DNA from: Eledone cirrhosa
Taxonomy: Eukaryota
Reading direction: 5' to 3'
Length of the DNA: 64,000 nt
NCBI GenBank assembly: GCA_964016885.1
Contig: OZ024747.1
Span: forward strand, 46,066,001 to 46,130,000
The notes under the pieces were generated by a model that ran no database searches, was not told the DNA's origin, and saw only the letters and a list, made by a program, of their open reading frames with translations. Positions 7,183-57,370 of this stretch are shown here, piece by piece (the first letter of the stretch is position 1; every line of letters begins with the position of its first letter). The position numbers were made by a program, and so were the translations under genes.

Positions 7183-7762
7183 ATGCACTCGTCCAGTGGC
7201 CGAGCATTGCTGACTTGTGGCTGTATGTCGAACACCTGCTGTCGCGTGTAGGACGGATCCGACTATCAGCTGAATCCATCGTGGGGATTGCCCCGCCCTC
7301 TTCCTTTAGCCGGGAAGGGCAGGCAGTTTTTATCTGTCTCGTGGCCATGGCGAAAGAGATAGTATGGTGGACGCGTCTGAAAGGGCTGAAGACGAGCACT
7401 TACCTCTTCGGTGATGCCCTGATTAACTTTTTCCAATTTCATTTGAAAAGGAAAATCAGGGTAGAGAGGGAAGTGCTCTCTTCCCAGCTTTTTGGTGAAA
7501 GATGGGTGAGAGAGGCAAGTAAATTGAGTATATGCCTGTAAATTGAAGGTGGAAAACTGGGAGAGGACAACTGCCCTGGGCTTTCTCCACGATGGCCCTC
7601 GGAAGTCTCCCCCTTATTGGGGAATTTTTCATTGTTCTATTATTACATCCTCTGTTTTTTTTGTTTTTTACACGCATAAATGCCCATTTGTACTGTCCTG
7701 TATTGTCCTGTACTGTCCTTAATGACTACTTTCTGTAAACCCTTGTGGTTAATAAAGAAACC
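7183..7762 (+). mobile_element. L1/Tx1 family A, 5'-truncated 3' fragment
   Basis: Near-identical to 17798-18372; encodes LSRVGRIRLSAESIV...KEIVWWTRLKGLK; ends AATAAAGAAA plus (TTA)n. Confidence 0.92.
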
Positions 7763-7797
7763 ATTATTATCATTGTTATTATTATTATTATTATTAT

Positions 7798-10700
7798 TCT
7801 TTGAGTCTCAGTCATTGATGTTAGTTAACTGGAAAGTTTATTGAAATGAATATCAAGCCACTACTTGCAGCCTCAGATATTCAGGACGTATCGGAGGGTT
7901 CTTGCTGTTCCCAGCAAGCATGCCTTTTGAAGCGTTCCAAAAAGCGTGAAGGGGCCAATTTAATTTAACCATCCCTGGAAACTTTTTCAGATAGTACCTA
8001 GTGCGCCTATGACAATCGGGATCACTTTGACTTCATGGCAGTTCCAAATCCTTTTTACCTCCCACTTTAAGTCCTGGTATCGGTTAATTTTCTCCCGCTC
8101 CTTCTCTTGCACTCTCCTGTCGAATGGGCAGGCCACCTCCACAATCAGGCACGATCTTCTTTCCTTGTCCAAAACCACCAGGTCAGATCTATTGTGTTCC
8201 AGTTTCTTGTCCGTCTGTATCCTAAAATCCCATAGCACCTTCACCTGATCGTTTTCTATCACCGACTCTGGCTTATGCTCATACCACTTCTCAGAATGTG
8301 GTAAATTGTTTACTTTGCATAGGTGTCAGTAGACCACGCTGCCCATCACATCATGTCTCCAGCCCTTATAGTGAGTCTGGGCTAGGTGTTTACACTCGGA
8401 TACAATGTGAGCCACCGTCTCCTCTCTCTCTCCACAGATCCTGCACAGTGGGCTAGCCTCCTCCTTGTAAATATGGTGTTTCAACCACTTCGTTTTGAGG
8501 GCCTGTTCTTGCGCAGCCATTAACATTCCTTCTGTAGCCTCTTTAAGGTCTCCTCTTTTCAACCATTTCCATGTCTGTGGATCTCTGAATTTCGTTTTCT
8601 CAAAGAAGGTACTATGAAGGGATTTTTCCTGAAGGCTGCTCTTTCGCCTTGTTATTTCCTCCTTGGACATCCCCTGGTCTATTGTCCTCTCCTTCAGTAC
8701 AATTCTGAGCATTGGCTCCTTACTATCAGTCACGTATTTGTGTAGGTTGTTTTTCTCCATCTGAACACAGTCCTCTATACTGATAAGACCTCTTCCACCT
8801 TCAGATCTCCTTAAGTAGAGTCTATCGACATCACTCCTCTTGTGGAACATATTGTAGATAGTCAATAGCTTCCTAGTCTCCCTATCCATTTCTTTTTGTT
8901 CAGCAACATTCCATCTCAGAATTCCCGCACTGTACCTAATAATAGACACAGCTCGGTAATTTACTGCACTTATGGCATTCCTACTGTTAAAATGTGACTT
9001 TAATACGCTCCTTACTCTCCGAATGTATTCAGATCTTATCAATTCCTTCATTTTTTTGTTCTTGATGTCATCAGCCTCCAGAACACCCAAATACTTGTAT
9101 TCTTCTTCGGTGTCAATTTCCCTTACCATGTCACATGTTGGTACCTGGATTCCGTTGCTTCTGCTCAATTTACCCCTCTTCATACCAAATCTCTTCACTT
9201 CCTAATACCAAATTGCATACATATATCATTGCTGAAAATACGGACAGTGTCAACAACCACATCCAACTCCTTCTCACTCTTCCCGAAGAGTTTAAGATCG
9301 TCCATGAAGAGGAGGTGATTGGTGGTAAGCTCTCCCTTTCCCAATTTGTATCCTGCTCTCACTTTTCGCAGTATAATGGTCAGGGTCATCAGGGCAAGGA
9401 CAAACAACAGAGGGACAGACTATCTCCCTGGAAGATACCTCTCTTGATCTTCACGCTTCCCAAGGATTCTCCAGCTGGTGTTAACTCTGTTTTCAGGACT
9501 GCATACTTTTGCCCAACAACTGTCTGATGTTATCTGCCACCTTGAAGATCTCTAGGCTTTTGGTGATCCACGAATGAGGCACCATGTCAAATGCCTTTTT
9601 GTAGTCTATCCATCCCATGGCAAGACCAGTGTTTCTCCTCTTGCAATTCCTCATTACCATCTTATCAATAAGTAACTGGTCCTTTGTACCACGGGACTTC
9701 TTTCGGCATCCTTTCTGTTCGTCCGGTAACAAGTTGTTTGTGTGGAGGTGATGGTAGATTTCCTCATACATAATGCTTGTCAACAGTTTCCACATTACGG
9801 ACAGACATGTGATAGGTCTATAGTTGGTAACATCATTACCCTTGATTCGGTCTTTCATTACCAGAACTGTAATACCTTTTGTCAACCACTCTGGTACCTC
9901 ACCTGACATCAAGCAGTCATTGAACATGGTTGTCAGTTTCGGGTGGAGGGATGTTATATTTTTAATCCAATACCCCTGCACATCATCTGGGCGTGGTGAT
10001 TTCTAGTTGGTTAGTTTTTTGACCTGCCCCTTAAGAGTTTCAAATGTGATACTCAAATCAGTTTGTTGGTGTGTCTGTTCACTAATCTCCTTTTGTACTC
10101 TCTCAATCCGCACTGCTTGGTCTTTATGTTTAACATCCTGCTCCCATATTCCTCTCCAGAATGTCTTAGTTTGTTCCGCCTCAGGTATCAAGTCGTTGCC
10201 TCTTTCTTTCCCTTCAAGCTGTTCAAACAGCATCTTCTGGTTGTTGTCAAACATGAGTTCTGTCTATACTTACTGACTCTGTTCTCGTATCGCCTAATTT
10301 TTGCACTCTTTGCTACAATGTGTTGCTCCAGTTCCTCTATGATAATATTAAGCTTTTTCATCCTAGTTTTGTACTTTATTTCCAGTCTATTTTTAGTGTC
10401 TATGTTTTTTAGTGTCCCATTCAGTAGGGACTCAAGCTTTCCAATGTCATTTCTCATTTCCCTGATTTGACCATTCAGTCGTTTCTTCCACCAAGGTTCT
10501 GATCTTTCTTGTTTGTTGTTTCCTCTCGCTTTTATGCCAAGTAATTTCCTCACCGCATTTGCTGTTGCTTTGAGGATACTGTTGCACTGGTGAAGGCTCC
10601 TCGCCTCAAGGTATGGGATGACTTTGTTTACCTGTTTAGCTGTTGTTTCTTTTAACTTTTTCCTGTCTACAAATCTTAGGTTCATAGGTTTCCCACTATC

Positions 10701-11490
10701 ATTGTTCAATTCATCTACCACTAAGTTTAGGATATCAACCAAATCCTGTCCTAGCCCGTCAGCATTCATCTCCTCAATGGCCGTATCTTTGTTCCAGGTA
10801 TTATTTATTTCAGCATTCATATCATTGTCTGCTTCGGATGGTTCCTCCGTTCTCTCAACCTCTTCACCTTCATTTCCCACTGGTTCGTTTGCCTGGCATA
10901 CTCCATTCTCCATTTCCAACCTAATCTCTCTGCTCAGTTCCCCCAGTTCCAGCTCGCTTATCCACCCATTAGTTCTTATTACCCGAGCCAGTCCGGCCAA
11001 TTTTTGTTCATCTAATTTAAATAGACCAATCTCGTTCCAGATGTTATGCATCCGTTTCCTATAGCCTTTCTCCTTGGGGTTACTCTTCAGGTAACATTGC
11101 ATAACAGTTCTATTCAATTCTTTCGTCCAGTTGGTTCTGGTCCCTTTCCTTCTTCTTCTTCCTCCGACACCAGCAGTATTTGGTTGACAGCCAGGTCCCT
11201 GTTGCTGAGCCAGGGAGCACCTGCTGGGTGAGAGTCTGTCACATGACATTCCTGTCTCCACTTCAACGTTATTCGAACTGTTTAGGTTCGACATTTAAAC
11301 ACTCTTATCGAGGATTGGTGAATGTATGGTTACATAACCACCGGTGATTTCATTACGCCCGGTGATTTTAGTGTGGCACTATCACGCTGTAGACGAACAT
11401 AAATAAACAAACAAACAAATAGGTAAACAAAACCCAAAAAAGAATAAGCATAAGTTTCATTGTAATGTAATGTTTAAATGTCTGACTTAG

Positions 11491-11500
<10 letters not shown>
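7798..11500 (-). mobile_element. R4/Dong-clade non-LTR retrotransposon, near full length, disrupted
   Basis: A single ORF in pieces: RT motifs (NYRPITCL, WIDYKKAFDMVPH, HLLFMDDLKL, YKYLG), CRIC..H..C knuckle and restriction-like endonuclease. (TAA)n at both ends, the established Dong target. Confidence 0.92.
7879..11294 (-). pseudogene. Dong/R4 RT-RLE polyprotein, frameshifted
   Basis: ORF-track pieces 10188-11294, 10003-10254, 9493-9981, 9195-9407, 8326-9198 and 7987-8262 are collinear. Confidence 0.9.
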
Positions 11501-11527
<27 letters not shown>

Positions 11528-11536
11528 GTTATTATT

Positions 11537-12915
11537 CCTTGAATCTCAGTCATTGATGTTAGTTAACTGGAAAGTCCGTTGGAATGAACATCAAGCCACT
11601 ACCTGCAGCCTCAGATATTCAGGACGTATCGGAGGGTTCTTGCTGTTCCCAGCAAGCATGCCTTTTGAAGCGTTCCAAAAAGCGTGAAGGGGCCGATTTT
11701 CTTTAACCATCCCTGGAAACTTTTGGAGATAGTCCCCAGTGCGCCTATGACAATCGGGATCACTTTGACTTCATGGCAGTTCCAAATCCTTTTTACCTCC
11801 CACTTTAAGTCCTGGTATCGGTTAATTTTCTCCCTCTCCTTCTCTTGCACTCTCGTGTCGAATGGGCAGGCCACATCCACAATCAGACACGATCTTTTTT
11901 CTTTGTCCACAACCACCAGGTCAGGTGTATTGTGTTCCAGTTTCTTGTCCGTCTGTATCCTAAAATCCCATAGCACCTTCACCTGATCGTTCTCCATCAC
12001 CGCCTCTGGCTTATGCTCATACCATTTCTCAGAATGTGGTAAGTTGTTTACTTTGCACAGGTGCCAGTGGATCACCCTGCCCATCACATCATGTCTCCAG
12101 CCCTTATAGTGGGTCTGGGCTAGGTGTTTACACTCGGATACAATGTGAGGCACAGTCTCCTCTCTCTCTCCACAGATCCTGCACAGTGGGCTAGCCTGCT
12201 CCTTGTAAATATGGTGTTTCAACCACATCGTTTTGAGGGCCTGCTCCTGTGCAGCCATTAACATTCCTTCTGTAGCCTTTTTAAGGTCTCCTCTTCTCAA
12301 CCAGTTCCATGTCTGTGGATCTCTAAATTCAGTTTTCTCAAAGAAGGTACTATGAGGGGATTTTTCCTGAAGGCTGCTCTTTCTCCTTGATGTTATTTCC
12401 TCCTCGGACATCCCCTGGCCTATTGTCCCCTCCTTCAGTACAGTTCTGAGCATTGGCTCCTTACTATCAGTCACGTATTTGTGTAGGTTGTTTTTCTCCA
12501 TCTGAACACAGTCCTCTATGCTGATAAGACCTCTTCCACCCTCAGATCTCCTTAGGTAGAGTCTATCGACATCACTCCTCTTGTGGAACATGTTGTAGAT
12601 AGTCAATAGCTTCCTAGTCTTCCTATCCATTTCTTTTTGTTCAGCAACATTCCATCTCAGAATTCCCGCACTGTACCTAATAATAGACACAGCTCGGGAA
12701 TTTACTGCGCTTATGGCATTTCTGCTGTTCAGATGTGACTTCAATACGCTCCTTGCTGTTCAGAGAAGGAAAGGGACCAGAACCAACTGGACGAAAGAAT
12801 TGAATAGAACTGTTATGCAATGTTACCTGAAAAGTAACCCCAAGGAGAGGAGCTATAGGAGACGGATGCATAACATCTGGAACGAGATTGGTCTATTTAA
12901 ATTAGATGAACAAAA
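11537..12915 (-). mobile_element. Second Dong/R4 copy, 5'-truncated with 5' inversion
   Basis: 11537-12754 matches 7798-9012. About 12763-12918 is an opposite-orientation copy of ~10999-11155. (TTA)n lies on both sides. Confidence 0.92.
11611..12744 (-). CDS. Open C-terminal part of Dong ORF (RT thumb, Zn knuckle, PD-(D/E)xK endonuclease); no native start
   Basis: 377 aa with CRICGEREETVPHIVSEC, RHD, TPDLVVVDK...DVACP, EK..RY and PIVIGALG. Confidence 0.8.
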   Translation of the reverse strand: MKSHLNSRNAISAVNSRAVSIIRYSAGILRWNVAEQKEMDRKTRKLLTIYNMFHKRSDVDRLYLRRSEGGRGLISIEDCVQMEKNNLHKYVTDSKEPMLRTVLKEGTIGQGMSEEEITSRRKSSLQEKSPHSTFFEKTEFRDPQTWNWLRRGDLKKATEGMLMAAQEQALKTMWLKHHIYKEQASPLCRICGEREETVPHIVSECKHLAQTHYKGWRHDVMGRVIHWHLCKVNNLPHSEKWYEHKPEAVMENDQVKVLWDFRIQTDKKLEHNTPDLVVVDKEKRSCLIVDVACPFDTRVQEKEREKINRYQDLKWEVKRIWNCHEVKVIPIVIGALGTISKSFQGWLKKIGPFTLFGTLQKACLLGTARTLRYVLNI

Positions 12916-12975
<60 letters not shown>

Positions 12976-13188
12976 GAATGCCATGGTTGACGGAGGCTGG
13001 GCTCTGTAAGGTATAGTAAATTTTAACTGCTATGACAATTGTAAATTGTTTAAAACTTTAACCAAATCGTAGAAAAAACACCCATCTCCTCGTGAGAGGG
13101 GGTCTTTCTGCCCGTTATTTGGCCCTTCGGGGTTAAATAACCGCTTATTGGGGTGTCGTGACCAATATTTATTTTAAACCAAAAAAAC

Positions 13189-15334
13189 ATGGCTACAAAA
13201 AAGAATGTTTACAAGTCACTCCCACTCATTCCGTCTTCTTCTTCCTCAATCGTAACTACACCAGAGAGAAGACTGTCTCTCTCCCTCCCTTCTCTAAATG
13301 TGTCTCTCTCCCTCCCTTCGCTTTCGCAAGCGATGCCAGTAAAGATAAATAGTTTCCAAAATCACGTGCAAACCGAGGAACATTTCTCCACGACGACAAC
13401 AACGGCGAATAATGTGTGCGGTAAATACGAAAACCCATTTCATTCGTCTGACGTCATGAATAATAGCAGTAGCAGCCGTAATAACAACAGCAGCAGCAAC
13501 AACAGTGACAAGGAAAACAACAGTAGCATCCGCAACAGCATCAGCATCAGCATAAACAACAACAGCATTAGCAGCAACAACAACAGCAGCAGCAGCAACA
13601 ACAACAACAACCACAGCAACAGTGGCGGCGGCAGTCGTAGTACCAGCAGCAACAACAAAAGTAACAGCAGCTCTGACGACGACAACAACTACAACAACAA
13701 AGATAAACCAATCTCGTTTGCAGGTATCGCAAAGAACCTGGAAACCATCCTTATAACAAATGAGGAATTACAGGAAGCAAAGAAGATGGTGACGAAAAAT
13801 GGACACCGAGCAATCTGCAAGGCAGCCGAAAACATTTTCGAAACCCAACAGCACTGTATGGTCACGTACCGTACAGTAAGCACAAAATCCCGTAGGGTTG
13901 AAAGGGCCACAGAGGCTCAAATACAAAAAGCCTTAGGGTCTGTGTGGCAGCGGAAAACGCATATCACCCGAGGCAAGAAATATGCCACCGTGGATGTGCT
14001 TTTTGCCACACCCCAGGAGGCAAAGGCTCAATCCTTAGTGACCCTAAGGAGCGACGAAATGGTGTTGGTGCCCTCCTACTGCGGACAAAAAATTGTGAGG
14101 GTCAAACTGACCCACGTCCCCTCCCCCCGGGGTGGCCCCTTCTTGGATGGCCGCGTCTGTCCTCGTCGGAATCGAGGACAAAACAACTGTACTGCAAGTA
14201 CAGAAAAAAGTACAAGAAGATTGGGTCGGCACCTCCATTGAGATTTTAATCCAAACCAACCAGGAGTGCATCGAAGCTATCCCGGATGTGATAGACTTTG
14301 ATAACAGCACTCAACTGCCCATAAGTGTTGAGGGCAAACGCCCGAAATGCTTTCGCTGTGGATCGAAGACTCACCTCAGGGCCTTCTGCAATGAAAACAC
14401 CCTGAGAAAGGAGAAAACCCCCCTCCTTCCGAAACCGGCTCCAATGCTACCAGCAACAGGACAGGCGGCAATCAGGAAGGATAGGTCCGTGGCACCCATA
14501 CCCGCGCCACGGAAATCAAAAACAGCAGCAGCAGTGGAAGTATTAACAACAACAACAGCAATATCAAGTGCAGCTGCAACAGAGACTCCACTGCAAACAT
14601 CACCACCAACAACAAGTGAAAGAGTGGAGCTGGTACCCCTCCCCGACCTCACAGAATCGGACATGGAGTGTGAGGTGGGAGAGGGATGGCAAAAGGTCGC
14701 AAGAAGGCACAAACGCAGAAGCAGCGCATCGTCGCCTTCGAAAAGGGAGGAAAGAAACGAAAAAAGGGTAAAGGCTACTGCAAAAAGATTTACAGCAGCA
14801 ACACCACCAAAACCATCACCACCCACACTAGCACCACTATCACCATCGGCGGCAACCCCACCGCCAACAACAACAACACCTTCAACACCACCACCACAAG
14901 CACCAACATCGCAAACACAACAAAACACACACACCCAGCAACAACGAAAAGAAAATAGCAGAACCGCACCCCAACCCCAGAAAAACAAATGCGCAGCAAT
15001 AAATACACACAACAAGAAATTAATGACTTACATAATTGAACACACAGACATTTCACAGCAAGACTACATAATACCAGCACCAATCAAAACACCAACGAAC
15101 ATAGGACTGGTAAAAATAGCACAGAAACAATACACAAACATTAAAACGTAATTCCCCAACGCAGTTGGTGATTTCAGAGACCTAGGAGGGACACTCAACC
15201 GGAGGGTATATTCGGTTATACTCACAGAAGAGCCGACGACCAGCCGAAGGGGCGATTCAACGGTCCCTTCACCAGACGATCAAGTGAAAAGGGATGGTGA
15301 AACCATCCTTCCTCTGCGAGAAGAAGTAAGGTAA
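13189..15334 (+). pseudogene. Tx1-A ORF1 (gag-like, CX2CX4HX4C)
   Basis: Asn/Ser-rich N-terminus; frameshift near 14120-14135; VEGKRPKCFRCGSKTHLRAFC. After an internal TAA at 15149 the frame stays open to AGG-TAA at 15329-15334. Confidence 0.85.
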
Positions 15335-15368
15335 GTGGTCTTTCCCATCTTTTCCACTCCATTTCAAC

Positions 15369-18118
15369 ATGACCTCACCCAGAATAGGCAGCATAAATTT
15401 GCCAATGTGGACTTAGACAAATCGCATAGGGTCAACCAGATCATATCTAGATAGAGTATTTTGTAGAGAAATAGATAGGTCTCGCATAGGCTGTCCACAA
15501 TTCAAGATAGTCAGCTACATGGACCACAAATTAGTGATCTGTGTGCTTGACTTAGATAGGCTTCATAGACGAGGACCCGGCTACTGGAAGCTAAACGCGT
15601 CCTTACCAGCGCGCAAGGCCTACAGAGACCGGATTAACGAACTAGTTAAGCGGGCGTTAACGGGGGCCATCGTCAACAACAAGTGGTGGTTTGCTCTGAA
15701 AAGAGCGATTAGAATAGAGTCCATTAGGTTTAGTAGGGCTTTAGCAATAGAGAAAAATAGAGCAGAGGGAGAACTAGTTAGAAAATTAGACGAGGCGCTT
15801 TGCAAAGGCATCGCGACCGACGTACTTGCGGCGAAATTGGCCCTTCATCAATTCTTCAATGCAAAGCACGAAGGCTACGTTGTCAGAGCTAGGGTGCGTG
15901 CTCTCAGATACGAGGGGACGAAAGCCGTTCAATGGGCCCGAGTGGCGGAGGCGCGTCGTGGCAACAAAGCCACGATCCGGTCTTTGGTGGACCAGACGGG
16001 CGCATGCTACTCGATCCCGGGCAAATGTGTGAAGCTTTTCAGCGACACTTCGCTAAGCTGTTCGGAGGCAGCGGTGGGCCGGGTCGAGGGATGGACTTTA
16101 GTGTCTACCTCGACGGACTGCCGCGGCTCTCGGCCACTGAGGCGGAGTGTTACGAAAAGCCGATAACAGCCGCTGAAGTACGGGAGGCAATGACTGACTG
16201 CACAAGGGTAAATCGCCTGGTTTGGATGGTCTGCTCTATGAACTTTACGTACAGATGCCAGACTTGTTCGGAGGCCTCTTGGCGGACGTCTACTGCAACT
16301 GGCAACAGAACGGGAGAATTCCCAGCTCTGTGAGCCGAGGAGCGGTGGCACTGCTGAGAAAGGATCCGAACAAGGGGGATAACATAGGTAATTTCAGGCC
16401 CATAACTCTGCTAAACACAGAGTTCAAGATTTTGGCCAAGGTGCCAGCAAAGAGGTTGGCGCTTGTCGTTGGTGGTCTGGTGGGAGAGGCTCAGATATGC
16501 GCCATTCCCGACAGATCCATCCACGACATCCTCCACCTCATGCGATACATCGTAGAGAGGGTAGCTAGGGAACCTGGCACGGGTGGGACTTGATCAATTT
16601 AGATCAGTCGAAAGCTTTCGATAGGGTCGACCATCGTTACCTAGCGGCAGTCCTGAGGGCGGCTGGCTTTGGGCCCGTCTTCAGAGGCTGGATCGCTGCC
16701 ATGCACAGCGACATCTGCTCTGTGGTGGGAGTGAACGGTCACCTTTCGGAACCGTTCAACATCATGCGCTCGGTCCGCCAAGGATGTCCCCTCTCGTCCC
16801 TCTTGTACGTATTGACTCTCGAGCCATTACTGCACAAACTGGAGACGTTGAGGGGCGTCCCGCGCGAACTAGGATGCGGAAGATCCGTGTGAGCATATGC
16901 GGACGATGTCACCGTAGTGGTGTCGAACGCCAAACACATCGAGGCGATCGGCACTACACTAAGAGAATACGAAGCGGTGACAGGAGCAATGATCAACCAG
17001 GTAAAGTCAGTGGGCCTGCAGCTCGGCACCTGGAGAGGCAGGTCCATGCCGTCTAACAGCGTCGTCGGACGCTGGACGGACGGACCGGTTAAATTGCTAG
17101 GGGTCTGGTTCGGTCCGGACCTCCAGACGGACAAAAACTGGGACGAGGTGACGAGAAGGGTGGCTTCTCTCACCCAGAAATGGGCGGAGAGGAAGCTATC
17201 CCTGAAAGGTCGAGCGGAGGTGGCTAACGCGTACTTCGCGTCTGTCATCTGCTACCGCCTGGCCGTCGTACCTTGTCCTAAGCCCCGCCTGACTGCGCTG
17301 GAGCGTTTGCTCTTTCGCTTTTTGTGGAAGGGACGCGCTCCGATGGTCAGGCGGTCCATCTGCTGTCAACACCCACTACATGGAGGGCTGGCCATGCCGT
17401 GGCTGATGATGCGCAGACACGTGTTCAGGCTACGACATCTCCACCTCTTCTTCGACGGTGATCAGGTGTGGTCGCCGTTTGCTAGACACGTATTTCCCCA
17501 GCTCGTTTCCTTGACGGAGCTACAGTCCTGGGTCAAGCGAAGACCGAGAGGGAGCGCTTGGAGACTGGAATGTCTTCAGGCGCTCACAGCCCTCGACCAA
17601 TCGGGCAATGTGATCGGTGGAAACTCCACCTCGGTGTTCTATAGAGGATTAGTGGAGGGGAAGAGCGACGACGTACTTGGGGAAACTCTAGACGTCGATG
17701 AAAATCAACTAGCCAATCTCTTCGTAACAACTTTCGTGCCGGGGCCTATGGACAACTTCCAGAAATCCCTGGCCTCGCAGTGCTACCGAGGAGCTTTGTC
17801 GCGTGTGGGACGGATCCAACTATCAGCTGAGTCCATCGTGAGGATTGCCCCGCACTCTTCCTTTAGCCGGGAAGGGCAGGCAGTTTTTATCTGTCTGGTG
17901 GCCATGGCGAAAGAGATAGTATGGTGGACACGTTTGAAAGGGCTGAAGACGAGCACTTACCTCTTCGGTGATGCCCTGATTAACTTTTTCAAATTTCATT
18001 TGAAAAGGAAAATCAAGGTAGAAAGGGAAGTGCACTCTTCCCAGCATTTTGTTGAAAGATGAGTGAGGGAGGCAAGAATGGCTCGAGTGAATGGGCCTAC
18101 TCTGAGTATGTGTCTGTA
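15369..18118 (+). pseudogene. Tx1-A ORF2 (APE endonuclease remnant + RT), disrupted
   Basis: MTSPRIGSIN joined to SYLDR/DHK, GPGYWKLN, NFRPITLLN, LDQSKAFDRVDH, SVRQGCPLS, AYADD; stops and frameshifts. Confidence 0.92.
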
Positions 18119-18389
18119 AATTAAGGGTGGAAAACTGGGAGAGGGCACTTGCCCTGGTGGTCAGGGTCACTGTGGCTTTTTAATGGGCTTTCTCCACGAA
18201 TGTCCCTCGGAAGTCTCCCCCCTATTGGGGAATGTTTTCATTGTTCTATTATTACATCCTCTGTTTCTTGTTTTTTTTTACACGCAGAAATGCCCATTTG
18301 TACCGCCCTGTATTGTCCTGTACTGTCCTTAATGTCTACTTTATGTAAACCCTTGTGGTCAATAAAGAAATCATTATTATTATTATTAT

Positions 18390-30696: not shown

Positions 30697-32100
30697 CAGA
30701 TGTGTGCAATTTTCCGGCCGCTACTTTGCTCAACCTTTTACAAGATTTGATGATCTGGAGATGAGATAATTCAGCTCCTGTCTCAACAGCCTGCCGCGAC
30801 TCTCGACCAGGGAGAGTGTGTGTTGCGAAAGCATCAGCTCATCAAATAAAGTGTTAGATGTCCTGTGTGTGAAAGACAAAGTGCTAGGTCTGGATGGTCT
30901 ACCCGATGAGTCTTATTCCAGCATGTCAACTATATTCACTATTGTCTTGGCAGCTGTCAATTGTAGCTGCCAACAAATTTGGAACATTCTAAATCATATA
31001 AATCTGGGAGCAGTACAACTACTAAAAGGGGACCATAACAAAGCGTACCTAATAGAAAACTACAGGCCAGTAATCCTACTGAAGACATCTGAAAGTGTTG
31101 GTGAAGTTGCTGGCCAGGATGTGGATGTTGGTCATCGTCAGTATAGACTAGGATGCACAGACTTATCCAATCTCTGGCAGATATATCCATGACAACCTCC
31201 ACCTCATGAGATGCATCGTAGAGTGGGTGGGAAGTAAACCCGGCTTTCGCGGGGCACGGGTCAATTTAAATCAGCCAAAAGCATTTGACAGAGTAGACCA
31301 TTGCTAACTAGAGTCTTTCTTAAGAGCAGCAGGGTTTCGTCTCTTTTTCAGATGTTGGATCACCACGTTCTACAGTGGCATCTTTTCTGTAATTAAATTG
31401 AACTACCACTTATCAAAACCTTTGCATTTCGAAAGCTCGATCCGTCAAAGATGTACTCTTTCCTCTCTCCCCTATGTGCTGGCTTTAGAGCCTTTGCTAC
31501 GGAGAATAGAAATTGTAAGAGAAATTTCCACTAGAACATAGCTACAGGTGAGCCGTGTCTGCGTACGCAGATTTCCTCATTGTCATGATGTCAGACACTT
31601 TAAATATAGAAGTAGTTGGCACCATTCTGGAAAAATGCCAGCAGGTTACTGGAGCGTGTATTAAACGGATCAAATCAGCGGGCATGAAACCCAGCATATG
31701 GAAACAAATTACCACGATGGCCAGCGGAAATCTTTGCCACTAGACTGATGGTCTAGTCAAAGTGCTTGGAGTCTGATTTTGACATGAACCCCATGTAGAC
31801 AAGAACTGGGAAGAGGTCACGACTAATATAGCGAATATCATTCAGAAGTAGACAGAGAAAAAGCTGTCCCTCAAAGGTCGAGCTGAGGTGGCAAACACCT
31901 ACCTTTCTTCGGTGGTATAATACCGTCTGTCCATCGTACCATGCACCTCCTTCCAAAAAATAAAATACCTGACCAGATTAGAAAGGGCAAGTCTCGCTAG
32001 TCAGAAGATCCATCTGTTACCAACATCCACTACATGGCGACCTCGAGATGTCATCGGTGTTGATGCGCAGACATGCGCTACGGTTAATGCACCTAGGGAA
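30697..32100 (+). pseudogene. Old, decayed Tx1-clade ORF2 RT fragment
   Basis: Collinear remnants QMC..., GLDGLP.E.Y, ENYRPVILL, IHDNLHLMR, KAFDRVDH, VSAYAD, KLSLKGRAEVANTY, MRRHALRL. Confidence 0.85.
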
Positions 32101-46301: not shown

Positions 46302-46362
46302 GTGAGAGAGACAGATAGTTAGATAGATAGATAAATAGATAGATAGATAAATAGATAGATAA

Positions 46363-46423
46363 ATTTCTTTATTAACCACAAGGGTACAAAAGAAGGGGAC
46401 AAATACAAATGGGGAGTTTACAT
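46363..46423 (-). mobile_element. 60-bp 3' stub of a third Tx1-like family
   Basis: Minus strand TGTAAACTCCCCATTTGTATTTGTCCCC...ACCCTTGTGGTTAATAAAGAAAT between (GATA)n runs. Confidence 0.75.
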
Positions 46424-46737
46424 AAATAGATAGATAGATAGATAATATAGATAGATAGATAGATAGATAGATATGTTTCTTTTATTTGCCACTAGGGCAT
46501 CAAAAGTGGGACAAGTACAAAGGGGGGAGTTTACACAAAAAGGCGTCCTCAATAAGGAGGAGGCAATAACAAAATATAAAAATAAAATAAGATATAACAA
46601 AAAATAAAATTTATAACAAAATCCTCAATAGAGAGGAGGCGCCTTGGGGGGTCGCACACACCCCCGAAAAAAGTGTGCAACCCTTCTCCTCAGGAGCACA
46701 GAGAAGGGGTGCTCCCTTGGTCTTTCATCTTCCTCAC

Positions 46738-49700
46738 CTATAGTCTGATGTAGAGTGAAGGCCCATTCACACGGGCCATTCTCGCCACTTTCACCCATCT
46801 TTCATAGAAACGGCTGGGGTGCAGCACCTCTCTCTCCATCCTGATCCTTCTTCCGAAATGATAACGGAAGAAACGGACCAGTTGTTGGCCAGAGAGAAAG
46901 GTGCCTGACCTCAGTCCTTTCAGACGCGTCCACCATACAACCTCTTTCGCCATGGCTATTACGCACAGAAACACCGCCTCTGCTTCATCTTTGAAGGGGG
47001 GAGGCGGCTTGATCATTACAATAGACTCGGTGGTCAACCGGATCGGTCCCACCCTTGACAGCAGTTGTTCGACATAGCCCCACAGATCGGCTACGCCCGT
47101 GCAGTGTACCAATGCGTGTGCAACGGTTTCCTCGTCGCACACGCATCTGGGACAGATCTTTTTGACGGGGTCCCTACCCGGGCGCCCGTGTCTGTAGAGC
47201 CTTTCTCGAACGGGTAAAGCCCCTCGGTAGCACTGCCAGGCCAGGGACTTCTGGAAGTTGTCCATAGGTCCCGGGCTGAATGTCCTACCGAACAGGCTGG
47301 CCAGTTCGTCCTCCTCCATGTCTAGGGCTTCTCCGAGGGCGTCGTCGCACCTGCTGCGTACCAGCCCTCTATAGAATGTTGCGGTGGAGTCTCCACTGAT
47401 AACCGGATCCGCCTGTCAGAGGGCGGTGAGCGCCTGGGCACACTCAGTGTGCCAGGCGCCCAGTTTTCTCGGTCTTTGCTTGACCCAGGATTGCAGCTCG
47501 GTGAGTGAGACGAGTCTGGGAAAGGTTCGTCTCACAAACGAGGCCCACACCGGTTGTCCGGTGAGGAATACGTAGAGGTGCCGTAGCCTTAATGCGTGTT
47601 TACGCAGCATTAGCCACGGCATCCCCAGCCCTCCTTTCGAAGGGTGTTGACAGCAGATGGATCTCCTCACCATAGGAGCCCGCCTCTTCCAAAGGAATTG
47701 GAAGAGCGCGCGCTCCATCTTGGTGAGGGTTTCCCTTGGGCAGGGCACTACGGTCAGGCGGTAGTAGATGACGGACGCTATGTAGGTGTTCGCCACCTCC
47801 GCCCGACCTTTCAGGGATAGTTTGCAACTGGCCCACTTCTGGGTCAGTGCAAACACCCTGTTCGTAACCTCCGCCCAGTTTTTCTCCACCTGGAGGTCCG
47901 GTCCGAACCAGACCCCGAGCAACTTCACCGGGCCCTCCGTCCAGCGTCCGACGACGCCATCGGAGGGCATCGTTTTGCCCCTCCACGTGCCGAGTTGCAA
48001 ACCGATCGACTTGTCCCGGTTCAGCTTAGCCCCTGTGAACTTTTCGTACTCCTCCAGTAAGGTGCCGACCGCCTCGATTTCGGAGGCCGTCGACACCATT
48101 ACTGTCACGTCATCGGCGTAGGCCGACACCGCTTTCCGCAATCCCGGTTCCAAAGGGATGCCCTGCAACAACTCCAACTTCCGCAGTAGTGGCTCGAGAG
48201 TCAACACATACAGAAGGGAGGAGAGAGGGCACCCTTGTCGGATGGACCGCGCGATTTTGAACGGCTCCGAGAGGTAGCCGTTCACCTTGACCCTAGAGCA
48301 GATGCGGCTGCTGTGCATAGCAGTGATCCAGCCCCTGAAAACGGGTCCGAAGCCTGCCGCCGCTAGCACCGCATCCAGGTAACCATGGTCGACCCTATCG
48401 AACGCCTTAGATTGATCCAAGTTGATCAGAGCCCCACCAAAGCCGGGTTCGTTCCCAACCCTCTCTATGATGTATCGCATGAGGTGGAGGTTGTCATGGA
48501 TGGACCTGGACGGGATAGCGCATGTCTGCGCATCTCCCACCAGGTTGCCCACGACAAGCGCCAACCTCTTTGCTAGCACCTTGGCCAAAATCTGTAACTC
48601 TGTATTTAGCAGAGTTATGGGCCTGAAGTTACTTATTTCGTCCCCCTTGTTCTCGTCCTTCCTCACTAGCGTGACTACGCCCTTGGTCACAGTACAGGGA
48701 ATTCTCCCGTTCTGTTGCCAGTTGCAGTAGACCGCCTCGAGGAGATCGGGGAACAAGTCCGGCATAGCTAGATATAATTCGTAAGGAAGACCATCGAGAC
48801 CCGGGGATTTGCGTCTGCCGCATTGGCTCAGCACGTCCTCTATCTCAGCGGCCGAAATCGGCTCCTCGCAGGACTTCGCCTCCCTGTCCGAGAGGCGCGG
48901 CAGGCCGTCGAGGTATGGACCGAAGTCCACGTTCCCAACCGGCTCCCCGCCCCTCCCGAACAGTCGGGAAAAGTGCCTTTGAAAGGCCTCACACATCTGC
49001 TTAGGCTCAAGAATCGCTCGTCCATCCAGGTCTCGGAAAGACCGGATGGTGGATTTAGTTCCACTGTTGGCCTCTGTCACGCGGGCCCAGCTAACAGCTT
49101 TGGTCCCCTCGTTCCCTAGAGCACGTATTTTACTTCGGACAACGCAGCCTTCGTGCTTCGCGTCGAAAAACTGGCTCAAAGCCGTTCTCGACGCTAGCAC
49201 TCTGGCCACGTCGCCGCTTCTAATTGCCTCTTCTACTCTATCTATTAGCTCCCTTTCCTTCCTATTCCTATCCGCAGCTAGAACCTTACTAAATTCTATC
49301 GAGACTACTCTAATCTCTCTCTTTAGAGATACCCACCACCTGCTGTTGACGATCGCTCCAGTCAACCGTTCCTTAACTAACGTACTAATCCGATTCCTGT
49401 AGGCTCTACTTGCCGGCAAGGACAAGTTGAGCTTCCAGTAACCGGGGCCCTGTCTATGAGTTCTGTCAAGGTTGACCATGCAGATCACTAATTTGTGGTC
49501 CGAATAGCCAACCATGCGCATTTTTGGACAACTTAAAAAGTCCTTATCCTTAATTCTAACTAAGAACCTATCTAGGTACGACCTAGATGATCCGCTACGA
49601 TTTGCCCAAGTCCAGGTTGGCGCAGTCGGGAAATCTAGTCGATATCTATCGGCCAGGTCAAATCGACCGATTAACCCTTTGAGGCTATTACACCCCTCTC

Positions 49701-50175
49701 TATCGGGGCAGGCCCCTACGTAGTCCCAGCGTGCATCTAGGATACCATTCCAGTCCCCCACTAATAGCAAGGAGCGGGACGTCCCCAGAAAAGTCTCCAG
49801 ACGATGAAAGAAGTCCGGCCGCATTCACCCTAAAGGGCCGTAGGCGGCTACCAACCTAAACGCTCCGCCTTTACCACTGCCAAGGTCTAGAACCACTAGT
49901 CGACCCTCCGGGTCCAAATGTACCATCTGTGTTGCGAGACCCAGATGTTTTTGCAGCAGAACGACAACTCCACCTCCACCTCCGGGCTGACAGAGAGATG
50001 CGTGCATCTCAAAGTCATCAAAGGTGGGGGCCAGCTGTCGCACGTTGCTGATCCGGGCCTCGCAAATAACCATCACATCTATACGTTGTGACCTGAGGTC
50101 ATTTAGAAGCATTGCTTGCTTCCAAGTTGAGCCCAGGCCACGCGCATTTAAACAGCCTACTCTTAGCATAGCCAT
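46738..50175 (-). pseudogene. Tx1-B ORF2: APE endonuclease + RT + C-terminal Zn finger; one frame with two TGA stops
   Basis: LNARGL, E, AAYGP, VGDWN, SYLDR, SDH; RT LDQSKAFDRVDH, QGCPLS, YADD; CPRC..ETVAHALVHC. Stops at 49825-49827 and 47416-47418. Confidence 0.95.
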
Positions 50176-50199
50176 GTTGGTGGTGAAGAGAAAAGGCAC

Positions 50200-51988
50200 T
50201 TACCTCTCTGCGTCCCGGGTATCGGGCTGCACAATTTCCATTAGGGTGGGGGATGGGTTGTTGGGTGGGGTGGTGGTTTGTGGAAGTGTGGGGGCATCAG
50301 TGTGTTGTGTGGTTGGGGAGCTTGGAGTTGTGTGGGTGTTTGGGGAGGGGGTGGGATAGCTTTTTAGGAGGACGCGGTTAATGGGCCCGACGCAGGGGGG
50401 ACCCACGTCCTTTTTAAAATTGTTTTTTAAAGTTTTATAGGTGTCCTGTGGGGCCTTAATCATTTTGAGGTGGGGGAAATCCCCTGCCTGGGTGAAGTTA
50501 GGCCCTTGTGTTTTTATTAGATTGTTGTTGTACACAATGTTTAACAGTTTTTTGTTTCTTGTATTTATGTATGTGTATGCATGTTTTTGTTTTTGTGTGG
50601 TGTTTTTTGTTTGCTGTTGTTGTGAGCTCTTTTGTGTTGGTGTCAGTGTTATGTTTTGGGGAGGGGTTTTTTTCATTTGTGTGTCTGAGGTGTGTTTTCT
50701 TTTTTTTCTTTTGATTGTGTGGAAGTGCTCCTCCTCGTCTGACGACGAACTAGGGTCATCTTCCGCGTTGGAGGGGTATATTTTCGGGTTGTGTTTGCGG
50801 TACGGGTGTTTTGGAAATTGTTTTTGTTTTTTGAGTGGAGGGGATGGGTTGGACATTGTTTTGTTTTGGTTTGAGCTGTGGTGGTTGTTTTTGTAGTGGT
50901 AGTTGTGGTGATTGTGTTGGTTGTGCAGTTGTTGGTGGTGTAGGCAGGATTGGGGTTTTCTTATTAAGTTGGGGACAGACAGCCCTCAGGTGACCTCTGG
51001 TTCCGCAGAGGTAACACGAGGGCCGTCTACCCTCAACGGTAATGTTGATGAAGGTTAGATCATCCAGTATGACGCGTTCAGGGATCTGGGCGATCCTTTC
51101 GGGCCTCATTTGAACTACAAGTTCGAGGCTCGTTCCACTGAACGCGTCACCCGATGCCTTTCCCATGGACACCAGCATGTCATCCTCCAGGTCCAGAAAA
51201 CCTGTCAAAACCCACCATATGTCCATAATCGGCAGGATGGTGTGGATTTTTATTTTTTGTGTTCTTCTACCCATGTACGTAGGGTAGAAGGCGTATGCGG
51301 TGGATGCGATTGGTTTGATGGACAGTTTCACTGCTGTGTCCCTGTCCTTCATGAGAATGGATAGACTCCCGTAGAGTCTATCCTTCTGAATGAAGGTGAT
51401 GTCCTTCATGACGTCTTTTAAAACCAGCTCTATCTCGCTCTGTGATGGTTGAGCTGGTTTTTTACTTTTGTTCGAGATTGTCCTAAACATGACCGTGTTT
51501 AGGAGTCTCTGGCTTTTTAGTTCCGGGGGGGAATGGATTGTGAATGAACCATTTTCCCCGTACACTATATATTTTTTCGCATCCGCCAGTAGCTCCTTCG
51601 CTTTTGTTATATCTACTGGCAGATAGTCGAGGGTTTTCCTTGTCGTCTCGGCGAAGGAGAAATTTTGTTTGTTTGTGTTGTTGTTGTCGTTGGTGGTGTT
51701 GTTGTTATCATTGTTGTTGTTGTCACCGTTATTGGTCTTGTTGTTGTTGTTATTGTTATTGTTATTGGTGTTGTTTTCGTCCGTCGCATTGTTGTTGTTG
51801 TTGCTGTTGCTGCTGGTTCTTTGGGTTGTTGCCATGGCAACGTCAAGTTGTCGGTTAACAGGTGGAGAGAATTCTTCCTCTGGCTGACCTTTCTTCTTGA
51901 CCTCTGCTACTGTGACAGTGGCAGGGGGAAGCTGTAAGTTCATCTTCCCCTTTCCTCCTTCGAATTTTGGTGAAGAAGCTTCGGCCAT
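50200..51988 (-). pseudogene. Tx1-B ORF1 (gag-like, CX2CX4HX4C), one frameshift
   Basis: VEGRRPSCYLCGTRGHLRAVC; Asn-rich N-terminus; pieces 50756-51988 and 50200-50856. Confidence 0.88.
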
Positions 51989-52207
51989 TTAAAAAATATT
52001 GACTTTTCAACAAGAAAAACCTTTTTTTTTTGTTTAACTATTTCGCCTAAAGGCGTAGAATATTTTGAGAGACTGACCAGATCAAAGTTTGACCTGGCAG
52101 TCCCTCTACAAAATGGTACAAAAATTAAAGTTATCAGACAAGAATTTCTATAGAAATTTAAACAGAACTTACTCAGCAAGTTATACGCGTGTGTCCATCC
52201 CAGAGAT

Positions 52208-52250
<43 letters not shown>

Positions 52251-54598
52251 TATTTCTTTTATTTGCCACTAGGGCATCAAAAGTGGGACAAGTACAAAGG
52301 GGGGAGTTTACACAAAAAGGCGTCCTCAATAAGGAGGAGGCAATAACAAAATATAAAAATAAAATAAGATATAACAAAAAATAAAATTTTTAACAAAATC
52401 CTCAATAGAGAGGAGGCGCCTTGGGGGGTCGCACACACCCCCGAAAAAAGTGTGCAACCCTTCTCCTCAGGAGCACAGAGAAGGGGTGCTCCCTTGGTCT
52501 TTCATCTTCCTCACCTATAGTCTGATGTAGAGTGAAGGCCCATTCACACGGGCCATTCTCGCCACTTTCACCCATCTTTCATAGAAACGGCTGGGGTGCA
52601 GCACCTCTCTCTCCATCCTGATCCTTCTTCCGAAATGATATCGGAAGAAACGGACCAGTTGTTGGCCAGAGAGAAAGGTGCCCGACCTCAGTCCTTTCAG
52701 ACGCGTCCACCATACAACCTCTTTCGCCATGGCTATTACGCACAGAAACACCGCCTCTGCTTCATCTTTGAAGGGGGGAGGCGGCTTGATCATTACAATA
52801 GACTCGGTGGTCAACCGGATCGGTCCCACCCTTGACAGCAGTTGTTCGACATAGCCCCACAGATCGGATCTCCTCACCATAAGCAGATGGATCTCCTCAC
52901 CATAGGAGCCCGCCTCTTCCAAAGGAATTGGAAGAGCGCGCGCTCCATCTTGGTGAGGGTTTCCCTTGGGCAGGGCACTACGGTCAGGCGGTAGTAGATG
53001 ACGGACGCTATGTAGGTGTTCGCCACCTCCGCCCGACCTTTCAGGGATAGTTTGCAACTGGCCCACTTCTGGGTCAGTGCAAACACCCTGTTCGTAACCT
53101 CCGCCCAGTTTTTCTCCACCTGGAGGTCCGGTCCGAACCAGACCCCGAGCAACTTCACCGGGCCCTCCGTCCAGCGTCCGACGACGCCATCGGAGGGCAT
53201 CGTTTTGCCCCTCCACGTGCCGAGTTGCAAACCGATCGACTTGTCCCGGTTCAGCTTAGCCCCTGTGAACTTTTCGTACTCCTCCAGTAAGGTGCCGACC
53301 GCCTCGATTTCGGAGGCCGTCGACACCATTACTGTCACGTCATCGGCGTAGGCCGACACCGCTTTCCGCAATCCCGGTTCCAAAGGGATGCCCTGCAACA
53401 ACTCCAACTTCCGCAGTAGTGGCTCGAGAGTCAACACATACAGAAGGGAGGAGAGAGGGCACCCTTGTCGGATGGACCGCGCGATTTTGAACGGCTCCGA
53501 GAGGTAGCCGTTCACCTTGACCCTAGAGCAGATGCGGCTGCTGTGCATAGCAGTGATCCAGCCCCTGAAAACGGGTCCGAAGCCTGCCGCCGCTAGCACC
53601 GCATCCAGGTAACCATGGTCGACCCTATCGAACGCCTTAGATTGATCCAAGTTGATCAGAGCCCCACCAAAGCCGGGTTCGTTCCCAACCCTCTCTATGA
53701 TGTATCGCATGAGGTGGAGGTTGTCATGGATGGACCTGGACGGGATAGCGCATGTCTGCGCATCTCCCACCAGGTTGCCCACGACAAGCGCCAACCTCTT
53801 TGCTAGCACCTTGGCCAAAATCTGTAACTCTGTATTTAGCAGTGTTATGGGCCTGAAGTTACTTATTTCGTCCCCCTTGTTCTCGTCCTTCCTCACTAGC
53901 GTGACTACGCCCTTGGTCACAGTACAGGGAATTCTCCCGTTCTGTTGCCAGTTGCAGTAGACCGCCTCGAGGAGATCGGGGAACAAGTCCGGCATAGCTA
54001 GATATAATTCGTAAGGAAGACCATCGAGACCCGGGGATTTGCGTTTGCCGCATTGGCTCAGCACGTCCTCTATCTCAGCGGCCGAAATCGGCTCTTCGCA
54101 GGACTTCGCCTCCCTGTCCGAGAGGCGCGGCAGGCCGTCGAGGTATGGACCGAAGTCCACGTTCCCAACCGGCTCCCCGCCCCTCCCGAACAGTCGGGCA
54201 AAGTGCCTTTGAAAGGCCTCACACATCTGCTTAGGCTCAAGAATCGCCCGTCCATCCAGGTCTCGCAAAGACCGGATGGTGGATTTAGTTCCACTGTTGG
54301 CCTCTGTCACGCGGGCCCAGCTAACAGCTTTGGTCCCCTCGTTCCCTAGAGCACGTATTTTACTTCGGACAACGCAGCCTTCGTGCTTCGCGTCGAAAAA
54401 CTGGCTCAAAGCCGTTCTCGACGCTAGCACTCTGGCCACGTCGCCGCTTCTAATTGCCTCTTCTACTCTATCTATTAGCTCCCTTTCCTTCCTATTCCTA
54501 TCCGCAGCTAGAACCTTACTAAATTCTATCGAGACTACTCTAATCTCTCTCTTTAGAGATACCCACCACCTGCTGTTGACGATCGCTCCAGTCAACCG

Positions 54599-54599
<1 letters not shown>
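52251..54599 (-). mobile_element. Tx1 family B, 5'-truncated, internally deleted copy
   Basis: Nearly identical to 46472-49369 except for loss of 47091-47651; (GATA)n at 52207-52250 and 54600-54695. Confidence 0.95.
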
Positions 54600-54658
<59 letters not shown>

Positions 54659-56679: not shown

Positions 56680-57370
56680 ACTTATTTCTAGAGAGGATCG
56701 TGGGGGCAGAGTCCTTTTCAAACTCTCCTTCCAGCGAGTCTGTCAGAAGCAAACATCTCTAACTGATCCAGATGGATCCCAAAGCATGACCAGCCAAGCT
56801 CTTGGATGTTATCCAACCATCTTTCTCATGGTCTACCCCTAGGTCTCTTGCCGGTTTGTTTTGCCTCTAAAATCTGTCCAGCGATTCTTTCCTGAGACAT
56901 TCTAACCACATGTCCATAGTATCGGAGCTGTGATATCTCAATTCGGAGAAGTAGCTGCTCTACCTGGAGTGACTCTCTGGTCTCTGAACTAAGCACTTTA
57001 TCGCGTAACGTACTCCAAAGACCCTTCGGAGGAACCCCATTTCTGCCACTTGTATTTGTAATTGTATTCTTTTGGTCATTACTCAAGATTCATGATCCTC
57101 GGTAAGGCTTGGCAGGAATGCCAGGAAGGCAGCGTGTTTCGCTTTAACACTTACCTCCCTTCTTCTGATTACTGAATGCTGAAGCTGGCGTATTACTGAT
57201 TACTGAATGCTGAAGCTGGCGTATTACTGATTACTGAATGCTGAAGCTGGCGTATCAGCTTTTGAAATTATTGCACTTAATTCAGCCTCCTGCATTCCAT
57301 CACTCATGAACACGGCCCCGAGATACTTGAACTTCTCTAACTGCTTCAGAACTTCATTCACTTGTATATA
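56680..57370 (-). pseudogene. RTE-clade LINE RT C-terminal fragment
   Basis: EKFKYLG, VAEMGFLRR, QLRYYGHVVRM, GKRPRGRP; contains a 31-bp triplication at 57165-57255. Confidence 0.82.

Follow-up and report, generated by a model that had tools for sequence, protein, structure and literature searches.

The DNA analysed here, a 64,000-nucleotide window of the Eledone cirrhosa genome (GCA_964016885.1, contig OZ024747.1, positions 46,066,001 to 46,130,000), carries two full-length long interspersed nuclear elements (LINEs) of different families, and in both of them the boundary between the two open reading frames (ORFs) reads as a 5' splice site, or splice donor. The family labels used below (A, A2, B, Bb, Bc, C, C2, D, D2, E, F, G, W and P) were coined in this analysis, for which the 3.0-Gb genome of the animal was searched. 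The first element, on the plus strand (12976..18370), is a decayed full-length copy lying between (ATT)n tracts. The initial annotation had called it family A; the copy in fact belongs to W, a chimeric family made of parts of families P and A (junction at 15284..15285). Its ORF1 (13189..15334), which encodes a CCHC knuckle, is frameshifted and contains an internal stop here (the intact copy encodes 697 amino acids) and ends in the donor motif AG|GTAAGTG (15329..15337), which holds the stop codon TAA (15332-15334). A pyrimidine-rich spacer, CAAC and the ORF2 start codon (15369-15371) follow (15335..15371), and ORF2 itself (15369..18119), specifying an APE endonuclease, a reverse transcriptase (RT) and a zinc finger, is broken in this copy by deletions and frameshifts. 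In the 5' untranslated region (UTR), a donor-like site, AAG|GTATAG, and an AT-rich, intron-like stretch ending in AG are predicted from the sequence (13011..13072). Two poly(A)-signal hexamers (14998..15145; at 14998 and 15140) lie in the A-rich ORF1, upstream of the donor, an acceptor-like site is located in the 3' UTR (18258..18287), and the element terminates in AATAAAGAAA followed by its target microsatellite (18361..18370).

The second element, on the minus strand between (ATCT)n tracts (46470..52200), is a full-length copy of family B, a very young family with many intact copies of ORF2: most of the 150 copies scored are 99% identical at the ORF2 start, and an open frame of 1,153 codons is found in many of them. 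In the window copy, ORF1 (50200..51988; 592 amino acids when intact) is frameshifted and ORF2 (46738..50175; 1,145 amino acids when intact) contains two internal stops, and the donor motif AG|GTAAGTG (50197..50205) again holds the ORF1 stop. The 5' UTR contains a GTAAGT site with a 67-nucleotide intron-like stretch ending in TTTTGTAG (52106..52172), and the ORF2 stop is followed by GT (TAG|GTGAGG, 46732..46740), a third and weaker donor-like site, the AG of which can also be read as an acceptor. Both boundary motifs lie where the initial annotation had placed them (15329-15337 on the plus strand and 50205-50197 on the minus strand), both ORF1s end in AGG TAA, and both donors are followed, as had been reported, by a pyrimidine-rich spacer and CAAC-ATG, the distance from GT to ATG being 38 nucleotides in the W copy and 28 nucleotides in the B copy. 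The bare 9-mer AGGTAAGTG occurs three more times in the window, each time on the minus strand and in an unrelated place: at 57156, in a decayed element, and at 17962 and 7405, antisense inside A/W ORF2. Since the 9-mer as such is not rare in the window, it is position and conservation that carry the signal.

That conservation extends throughout the clade. The sequence G|GTAA(G/T)T is found at the ORF1/ORF2 boundary in 14 of 14 separable families or subfamilies, and the pattern AGGTAAGT N8-36 CAACATG has 7,752 matches in the genome, versus 333 for the reversed pattern. Families A, A2, B, Bb, Bc, C, C2, D, D2, E and F were present among the matches listed and the full-length copies, and G, W and P were found by later searches. 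To avoid circularity, ORF2 starts were also searched without reference to the donor (3,566 matches); in the resulting sample of 47 starts, from the first 40 Mb of one contig (C1), 40 were preceded by the exact motif and five by a variant GT site, one of which, CAG|GTAATT, is that of family G, while the remaining two had lost the motif by decay (substitution or small deletion). A column comparison of 13 family representatives shows no departure at positions -1, +1 to +4 and +6 and a single one at each of -2 and +5 (12 of 13 agreeing), with -4 and +8 varying freely; family P agrees with this column pattern. The conservation is bounded by the footprint of the U1 small nuclear ribonucleoprotein (snRNP), positions -2 to +6 matching the 5' end of U1. 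Donors are known to follow a U1-complementary consensus and to tolerate departures from it by rule, and the two departures seen here, the loss of G at +5 in the sole family that has C at -3 and the change of -2 to C in W, both fit those rules. ORF2 identity between the major groups is only about 58 to 72%, pairwise identity at four-fold sites is about 0.4 to 0.5, and 17 of 77 four-fold sites are invariant over seven families. These ORF1s, moreover, use AGA more often than AGG, yet have G as the last base of their final codon.

Two types of ORF1 ending are distinguished. In the first, the frame closes on Arg followed by TAA at +2; it is found in A, W, B, Bc and D, whose frames are open for 530, 712, 591, 592 and 293 codons, respectively, and in F and G. 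In the second, Gly-Lys precedes a stop at +6; A2, C and P, open for 726, 406 and 338 codons, belong to it, and C2 was assigned to it by similarity, its decayed copies showing mixed frames. The earlier statement that the TAA within the donor is the ORF1 stop is therefore right for both window copies but not for every family, the stop lying at +6 or before the site in others. The spacers, 27 to 53 nucleotides long, place ORF2 in all three frames relative to ORF1, which led us to reject readthrough or frameshifting into ORF2 as an explanation. Judged from these comparisons, the motif is kept as nucleotides, independent of the reading frame, and the boundary site is very probably a U1-type donor under selection. 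Donor-like sites are also present 30 to 45 nucleotides into the 5' UTR in B, Bb, C, D and D2 (GTAAG), A (GTTTGT) and W (GTATAG), although not clearly in A2 or Bc, and GT directly follows the ORF2 stop in B, Bb, Bc, C, D and E. Two isolated observations may be added. A second AAG|GTAAGT is located about 309 nucleotides past the ORF1-end donor in the endonuclease region of A (locus L067) and also in A2; it is weaker in W and absent in B. The spacer of one family F element (L085) contains ATATCCTTT, which we take to be the minor-spliceosome donor consensus; it was not seen in other families and is probably a coincidence.

Beyond this genome, a scan of GTDB yielded 46 loci, of which 43 are LINEs arrayed in tandem on contigs assigned to a single bacterial bin; contigs of this kind in bacterial genome bins (L313-L357 and L358), with their tandem two-ORF arrays, are most likely host animal DNA. 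The ORF2 of this distant relative is 40 to 43% identical to those described here, and a quick tree, built without any named Tx1 reference, places it in the sister group of the clade, about 1.5 amino acid changes per site away. Its ORF1 ends in GAG TAA, directly followed by G|GTAAGT, so that the stop lies before the site, and the ORF2 ATG is located 13 nucleotides from the GT, with no pyrimidine spacer. G|GTAAGT was present in 79 of 81 overlapping contexts, GTAAGT is also found about 40 nucleotides into the 5' UTR, and GT(A/G)AGT occurs 14 nucleotides past the ORF2 stop in four sub-lineages with different flanks. In one 3' UTR (L322), the donor 14 nucleotides after the ORF2 stop is followed some 260 nucleotides on by an acceptor-like site, possibly a retained 3' UTR intron. 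The initial annotation had proposed looking for the motif in related families, and there it proved to be conserved: in 14 of 14 families and in this distant relative. Metagenomes contributed 33 loci, with the boundary read in 13; in relatives at 24 to 29% identity the ORF1 stop is without GTAAG (the placement being clear in L205, L206 and L210), L353 lacks it as well, and no relatives were found on viral contigs.

The elements themselves are of a known type. An intact B ORF2 matches PF03372 (33.3 bits, cut-off 24.5) and PF00078 (92.1 bits) and, below the cut-off of 27.5, zf-RVT (24.7 bits). A CX2CX4HX4C knuckle is present in five of five intact ORF1s, with Pfam zf-CCHC matching two of four below its cut-off; weak matches to a methyl-CpG-binding domain in the ORF1s of L067, L185 and L203 (PF01429, E values of 0.004 to 0.03, below cut-off) are possibly due to chance. 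Among solved structures, L1 ORF2p is closest to ORF2 (E = 2.5e-48, residues 8-857), followed by R2 (E = 3e-19, RT only). The elements end in AATAAAGAAA against a microsatellite, without poly(A), and stack in tandem at their targets, which are (ATT)n for A, W, A2, P, C and G and (ATCT)n-type tracts for B, D and E. Kibi and Koshi are known L1/Tx1-type elements that target microsatellites. With two ORFs, a CCHC knuckle in ORF1, an APE-RT-zinc finger ORF2, insertion into microsatellites and no poly(A) tail, the elements described here read as L1/Tx1-type LINEs, an assignment made with no named Tx1 reference among the matches or in the tree. L1-Tx1 families are listed as active in Octopus vulgaris in Table 1 of PMC13282606, and the repeat mix of the present genome resembles that given there for octopus. 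What sets the elements apart from others of their type is the conserved donor at the ORF1 stop, for which we found no description and which the relatives at 24 to 29% identity lack.

If a donor is to be spliced, it needs an acceptor. The initial annotation had named two, in the 3' UTRs of the window copies, by which ORF2 would be removed as an intron. The AGs are there as quoted (18286-18287 and, on the minus strand, 46493-46492), but neither site withstood comparison. The one described as a textbook acceptor (CACGCAG) is common to A, W and G only, A2 and P reading CACGCAC and D having no AG there, and the B candidate (46492..46493) is a variant of the common terminal motif, which in the other families contains no AG. 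When 12 3' UTRs were shuffled, 14 to 93% of the shuffles matched the top-scoring acceptor-like site of the UTR concerned, and neither of the two named sites exceeds this background. At the site of the A acceptor, 23 of 23 other copies read have CAG, preceded by normal UTR, so that the CAT at 7675-7677 in a 5'-truncated A/W-type 3' fragment (7240..7765, plus strand), correctly noted earlier as a caveat, is a private change.

Nor did we find retroposed copies lacking the donor-to-acceptor interval, which the initial annotation had suggested looking for. Copies with a changed donor were collected as those in which G is absent directly after the ORF1 end (49 A-type, 19 W-type and 5 B-type) or, for B, GT is followed by a base other than A (7); among these 80 there was no spliced copy and none joined to the 3' UTR, the changes being substitutions, slips and small deletions, plus two deletions into ORF2. 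The search drew on thousands of copies, with no count per family, and joins to exons starting with G were covered for B only, and only when T follows. The end of the putative B 5' UTR exon followed by a base other than G had no match in the genome, and no B copy without the 5' UTR stretch was found. An RNA without ORF2 would presumably keep its tail, with the junction less than 250 nucleotides from the 3' end, so that even short copies would show it; strict cis-preference could nevertheless hide such RNA from the genomic record. The ORF2 stop was considered as a universal acceptor and rejected, since all seven B copies in which C, G or T comes after the GT are mutants; in B that site reads equally well as a weak donor. 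Four of six sequencing runs, whose kind (DNA or RNA) is not on record, gave no joint at the donor among 15 of 149 joints listed when compared with B, and run X4, compared with a natural A-then-W tandem, gave none at the donors or the acceptor among the 15 joints listed of 28 and the 6 loose ends listed of 248. A single 1,412-nucleotide X4 contig spans the W donor unbroken; X4 may be DNA or passive intronic RNA, and none of these comparisons was used as evidence. Of the splicing or U1 switch originally proposed, then, the conserved U1-type 5' splice site stands, whereas the ORF2 intron ending at the named acceptors is not supported. Another of the options offered there, a block to premature polyadenylation by bound U1, agrees with the reading favored below.

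A different kind of junction is seen in family W. The plus-strand window copy matches A only from 15283 onward, and the sequence before it is P-type: in eight W copies, the 50 nucleotides before the junction are 96 to 98% like P and about 60% like A, and the 100 nucleotides after it are 82 to 96% like A and 47 to 58% like P. The W-type ORF1 end followed by a base other than G has 2,382 matches, and 30 of 30 read run into the last 14 to 15 ORF1 codons of A, its spacer and its ORF2; followed by G, it has 87 matches, of which 30 were read and identified as P (24), A2 (1) and W mutants (5). W is thus represented by 2,382 copies, versus about 70 for P. The boundary of P reads ..GATCAAG|GTAAGTGA, and the switch point in W is exactly P's donor, that is, its exon boundary, and lies directly after a CAG in A. 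Tandem arrays are common, and in 6 of 20 P loci the 7.5 kb following P contain, on the same strand, either the 5' end of an A element or the tail of an A ORF1. A good acceptor is lacking in P itself, and no copy with an intermediate junction (one to nine extra bases) was found. Most W copies have since changed their own donor to ACG|GTAAGT, a synonymous change that leaves a strong site. While W could on these grounds be a fossil splice, in which the ORF1 donor of P was joined to A, other details speak against a splice origin. Short shared sequences flank the junction, CAAG three bases ahead of it in A and AGTGA five bases past it in P, and a template switch at either, with loss of three or five bases, gives the same sequence; a five-base loss of this type was seen in A mutants. 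All 62 W junction reads also carry one extra base, so that at least one further change took place and unseen intermediates existed, and A's acceptor at the junction has a poor pyrimidine tract. To us, a splice and a template switch appear about equally probable as the origin of W.

We propose that the conserved 5' splice site binds U1 snRNP and stays mostly unspliced, thereby protecting the full-length two-gene RNA, a reading that we favor with slightly less than even confidence. U1 snRNP bound at the ORF1/ORF2 boundary would shield that RNA from premature cleavage or termination or, in a variant of the same idea, from other nuclear surveillance; both binding and protection are proposed by analogy with the Arabidopsis element EVD and the major splice donor of HIV-1. 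In HIV-1, U1 at the strong major donor blocks nearby poly(A) sites without splicing (telescripting; summarized in PMC5580714), an effect that was shown experimentally there and that we can only infer here. The presence of several donors, with no conserved acceptor and no spliced copies, fits U1 recruitment without regular splicing, and poly(A) hexamers lie 140 to 490 nucleotides upstream of the donor in five of five intact elements. As a side effect, the donor, having no partner, might occasionally be joined, within a tandem array, to some cryptic acceptor of the element that follows, and one such joining may, with the even chance given above, have linked the ORF1 of P to the ORF2 of A and founded W.

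Several points weigh against this proposal. ORF2, downstream of the donor, has zero to one poly(A) hexamer per element, which leaves little obvious to protect, and the hexamers in the A-rich ORF1 show no pattern in their spacing relative to donors; A2 and P, furthermore, have an internal AATAAA in the 3' UTR and no donor at the ORF2 stop. By a crude U1-match score, the boundary site ranks only among the top one to six GT sites of each element, which does not discriminate. The stop codon is also where a donor that removes ORF2 without triggering decay would be expected to sit, and retroviruses achieve partial splicing by pairing a strong donor with acceptors that are weak and varied.

The last two points lead to the main rival, regulated splicing, which owes that rank to the site at the stop and to the intron-like 5' UTR stretches. 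Here, as the initial annotation proposed, part of the transcripts would join the donor to a weak 3' acceptor, so that ORF2 is lost and the mRNA encodes ORF1 alone; ORF1 would then form a complete exon, bounded by the 5' UTR intron and the stop-codon donor, and copying would be confined to unspliced RNA, the sole source of ORF2p. The donor lies without exception at or beside the ORF1 stop, intron-like 5' UTR stretches of 60 to 70 nucleotides are found here and in the distant relative, acceptor-like sites occur in A, W, G and that relative, ORF2 ends in CTGTAG or CTATAG in most families, the W junction suggests that the donor is usable, and copia offers a precedent. All the same, we regard this as doubtful: no acceptor is conserved (with 14 to 93% of shuffles doing as well), no genomic copy is spliced at the named acceptors, although tail-bearing RNA should leave a visible junction, all 23 of the post-acceptor sites read are preceded by normal UTR, and no B copy has lost the 5' UTR stretch. 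The stronger version, a programmed design with ORF1 as exon and ORF2 as removable intron, in which splicing between families through the donor also founds new families such as W, seems to us rather unlikely.

Improbable, in our view, is a signal for translation, in which termination and reinitiation on ORF2 are served by a sequence that resembles a donor by coincidence. The ORF2 of bicistronic LINEs does need some such route, and the motif sits at the ORF1 stop, 13 to 53 nucleotides before a start codon in good context; however, the stop is not fixed with respect to the motif, lying at +2, at +6 or ahead of it, the hexamer is found again in 5' UTRs and after ORF2 stops, and the variation obeys donor rules. 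A shade less probable still is that the donor is kept for the exchange of ORF1 and promoter modules that it permits between lineages in tandem arrays, which are common: W, a P/A chimera joined at the donor, did reach 2,382 copies versus about 70 for P, but it is one case in 14 families, its splice origin is itself uncertain, and so rare a benefit is unlikely to fix seven bases. We give very little credence to neutral inheritance from one ancestor, with the motif held only by the stop codon and the terminal Arg or Gly-Lys; while all families are related and the motif is partly coding, it stands in different frames, its synonymous and noncoding positions are fixed where neutral invariance is only 22% per site, and in a relative at a distance of about 1.5 changes per site it is retained although it lies outside the coding region there. 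Finally, the idea that the pyrimidine-rich spacer is excised as a mini-intron, with ORF1 thereby fused to ORF2 through an early AG (AGA at ORF2 codon 5 gives an in-frame join in A, W and B), is scarcely credible, as such introns would measure only 42 to 57 nucleotides, D has CGA at that codon, P has no AG in matching phase, the stop precedes the donor in the distant relative, and the fused RNA would be copied in cis, yet no such copy was found.

The closest precedents known to us come from other classes of element. According to the relevant sections of PMC5580714, Ty1/Copia EVD of Arabidopsis and copia of Drosophila likewise have a conserved 5' splice site near the gag/pol boundary, their unspliced RNA is the genome, and the EVD donor both splices and, through the binding of U1, suppresses premature termination of unspliced RNA. 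Those are long terminal repeat (LTR) elements, however, with a defined acceptor and a demonstrated spliced GAG RNA (PMC5580714), whereas the elements described here are LINEs with no conserved acceptor found, and their ORF1 has its own stop without splicing. Human L1 is likewise a LINE with conserved, functional splice sites whose copied RNA mostly escapes splicing; as described in PMC5860796 and PMC2896524, its donors lie in the 5' UTR, splicing removes the promoter or ORF1 and not ORF2 (SpIREs and SpORF2 RNA, respectively), and about 2% of full-length copies are spliced, the SpIREs being dead ends. In our elements, by contrast, no internally spliced copy was found, and the lone candidate splice product is a large active family. 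W also resembles the mRNA/L1 (PMC13174262) and U6/L1 (PMC6789731) chimeras, in which a 5' part joined to a downstream LINE was retrotransposed; in the mRNA/L1 chimeras, known as rare insertions in which host exons ending at donors are joined to L1, the 5' part stops exactly at a donor, as in W. Whereas those accounts concern single insertions or two-copy cases with host exons (PMC13174262, PMC6789731), W joins two LINE families, with promoter and ORF1 swapped, in about 2,400 copies. Our literature search, outside which lay supplements, repeat databases and subscription journals, returned neither a conserved donor at a LINE ORF1 stop nor a LINE family founded at one.

Other repeats also lie in the window. 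The W copy adjoins, at an (ATT)n tract, the pieces of a second non-LTR element (8326-12759, minus strand) with an RT and a C terminus bearing CCHC and a PD-D..K nuclease-type motif, which we would liken to R4/Dong. Upstream of the full B copy is stacked a 5'-truncated, internally deleted B copy (52247-54600, minus strand), and downstream of it lies a short 3' end of another family (46358-46429, minus strand); same-strand stacking of elements at microsatellites is common genome-wide. An old relic of a more distant family (31150-32100, plus strand), 64 to 67% like the young ORF2s, was considered as an outgroup and rejected, its only relatives being decayed ones at 65 to 76% identity. Pif1 helicase fragments (PF21530 and PF13538; 62199-63797, minus strand) probably belong to a Helitron, and a short repeat with seven copies in the window (5780, 35128 and 59307 on the plus strand; 23132, 23610, 26424 and 26735 on the minus strand), also found beside many of the elements fetched, is probably a short interspersed nuclear element.

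LINE lineages often swap promoters and ORF1 by means that are unknown; in the case of W, both parents are still in the genome and the breakpoint is mapped to the base. LINEs have been regarded as intronless, with splicing harmful and spliced copies dead ends (PMC5860796). What we report is a real and selected motif for which our search returned no earlier description in this known type of element, and the young, intact copies allow direct tests of its function. If our reading is right, a clade with selected consensus donors at its ORF boundaries would represent LINEs that use U1 or the spliceosome as a helper, a role so far shown for LTR elements and retroviruses, and the finding would bear on the survival of long, two-gene LINE RNA under nuclear surveillance and on the setting of ORF1p and ORF2p levels.

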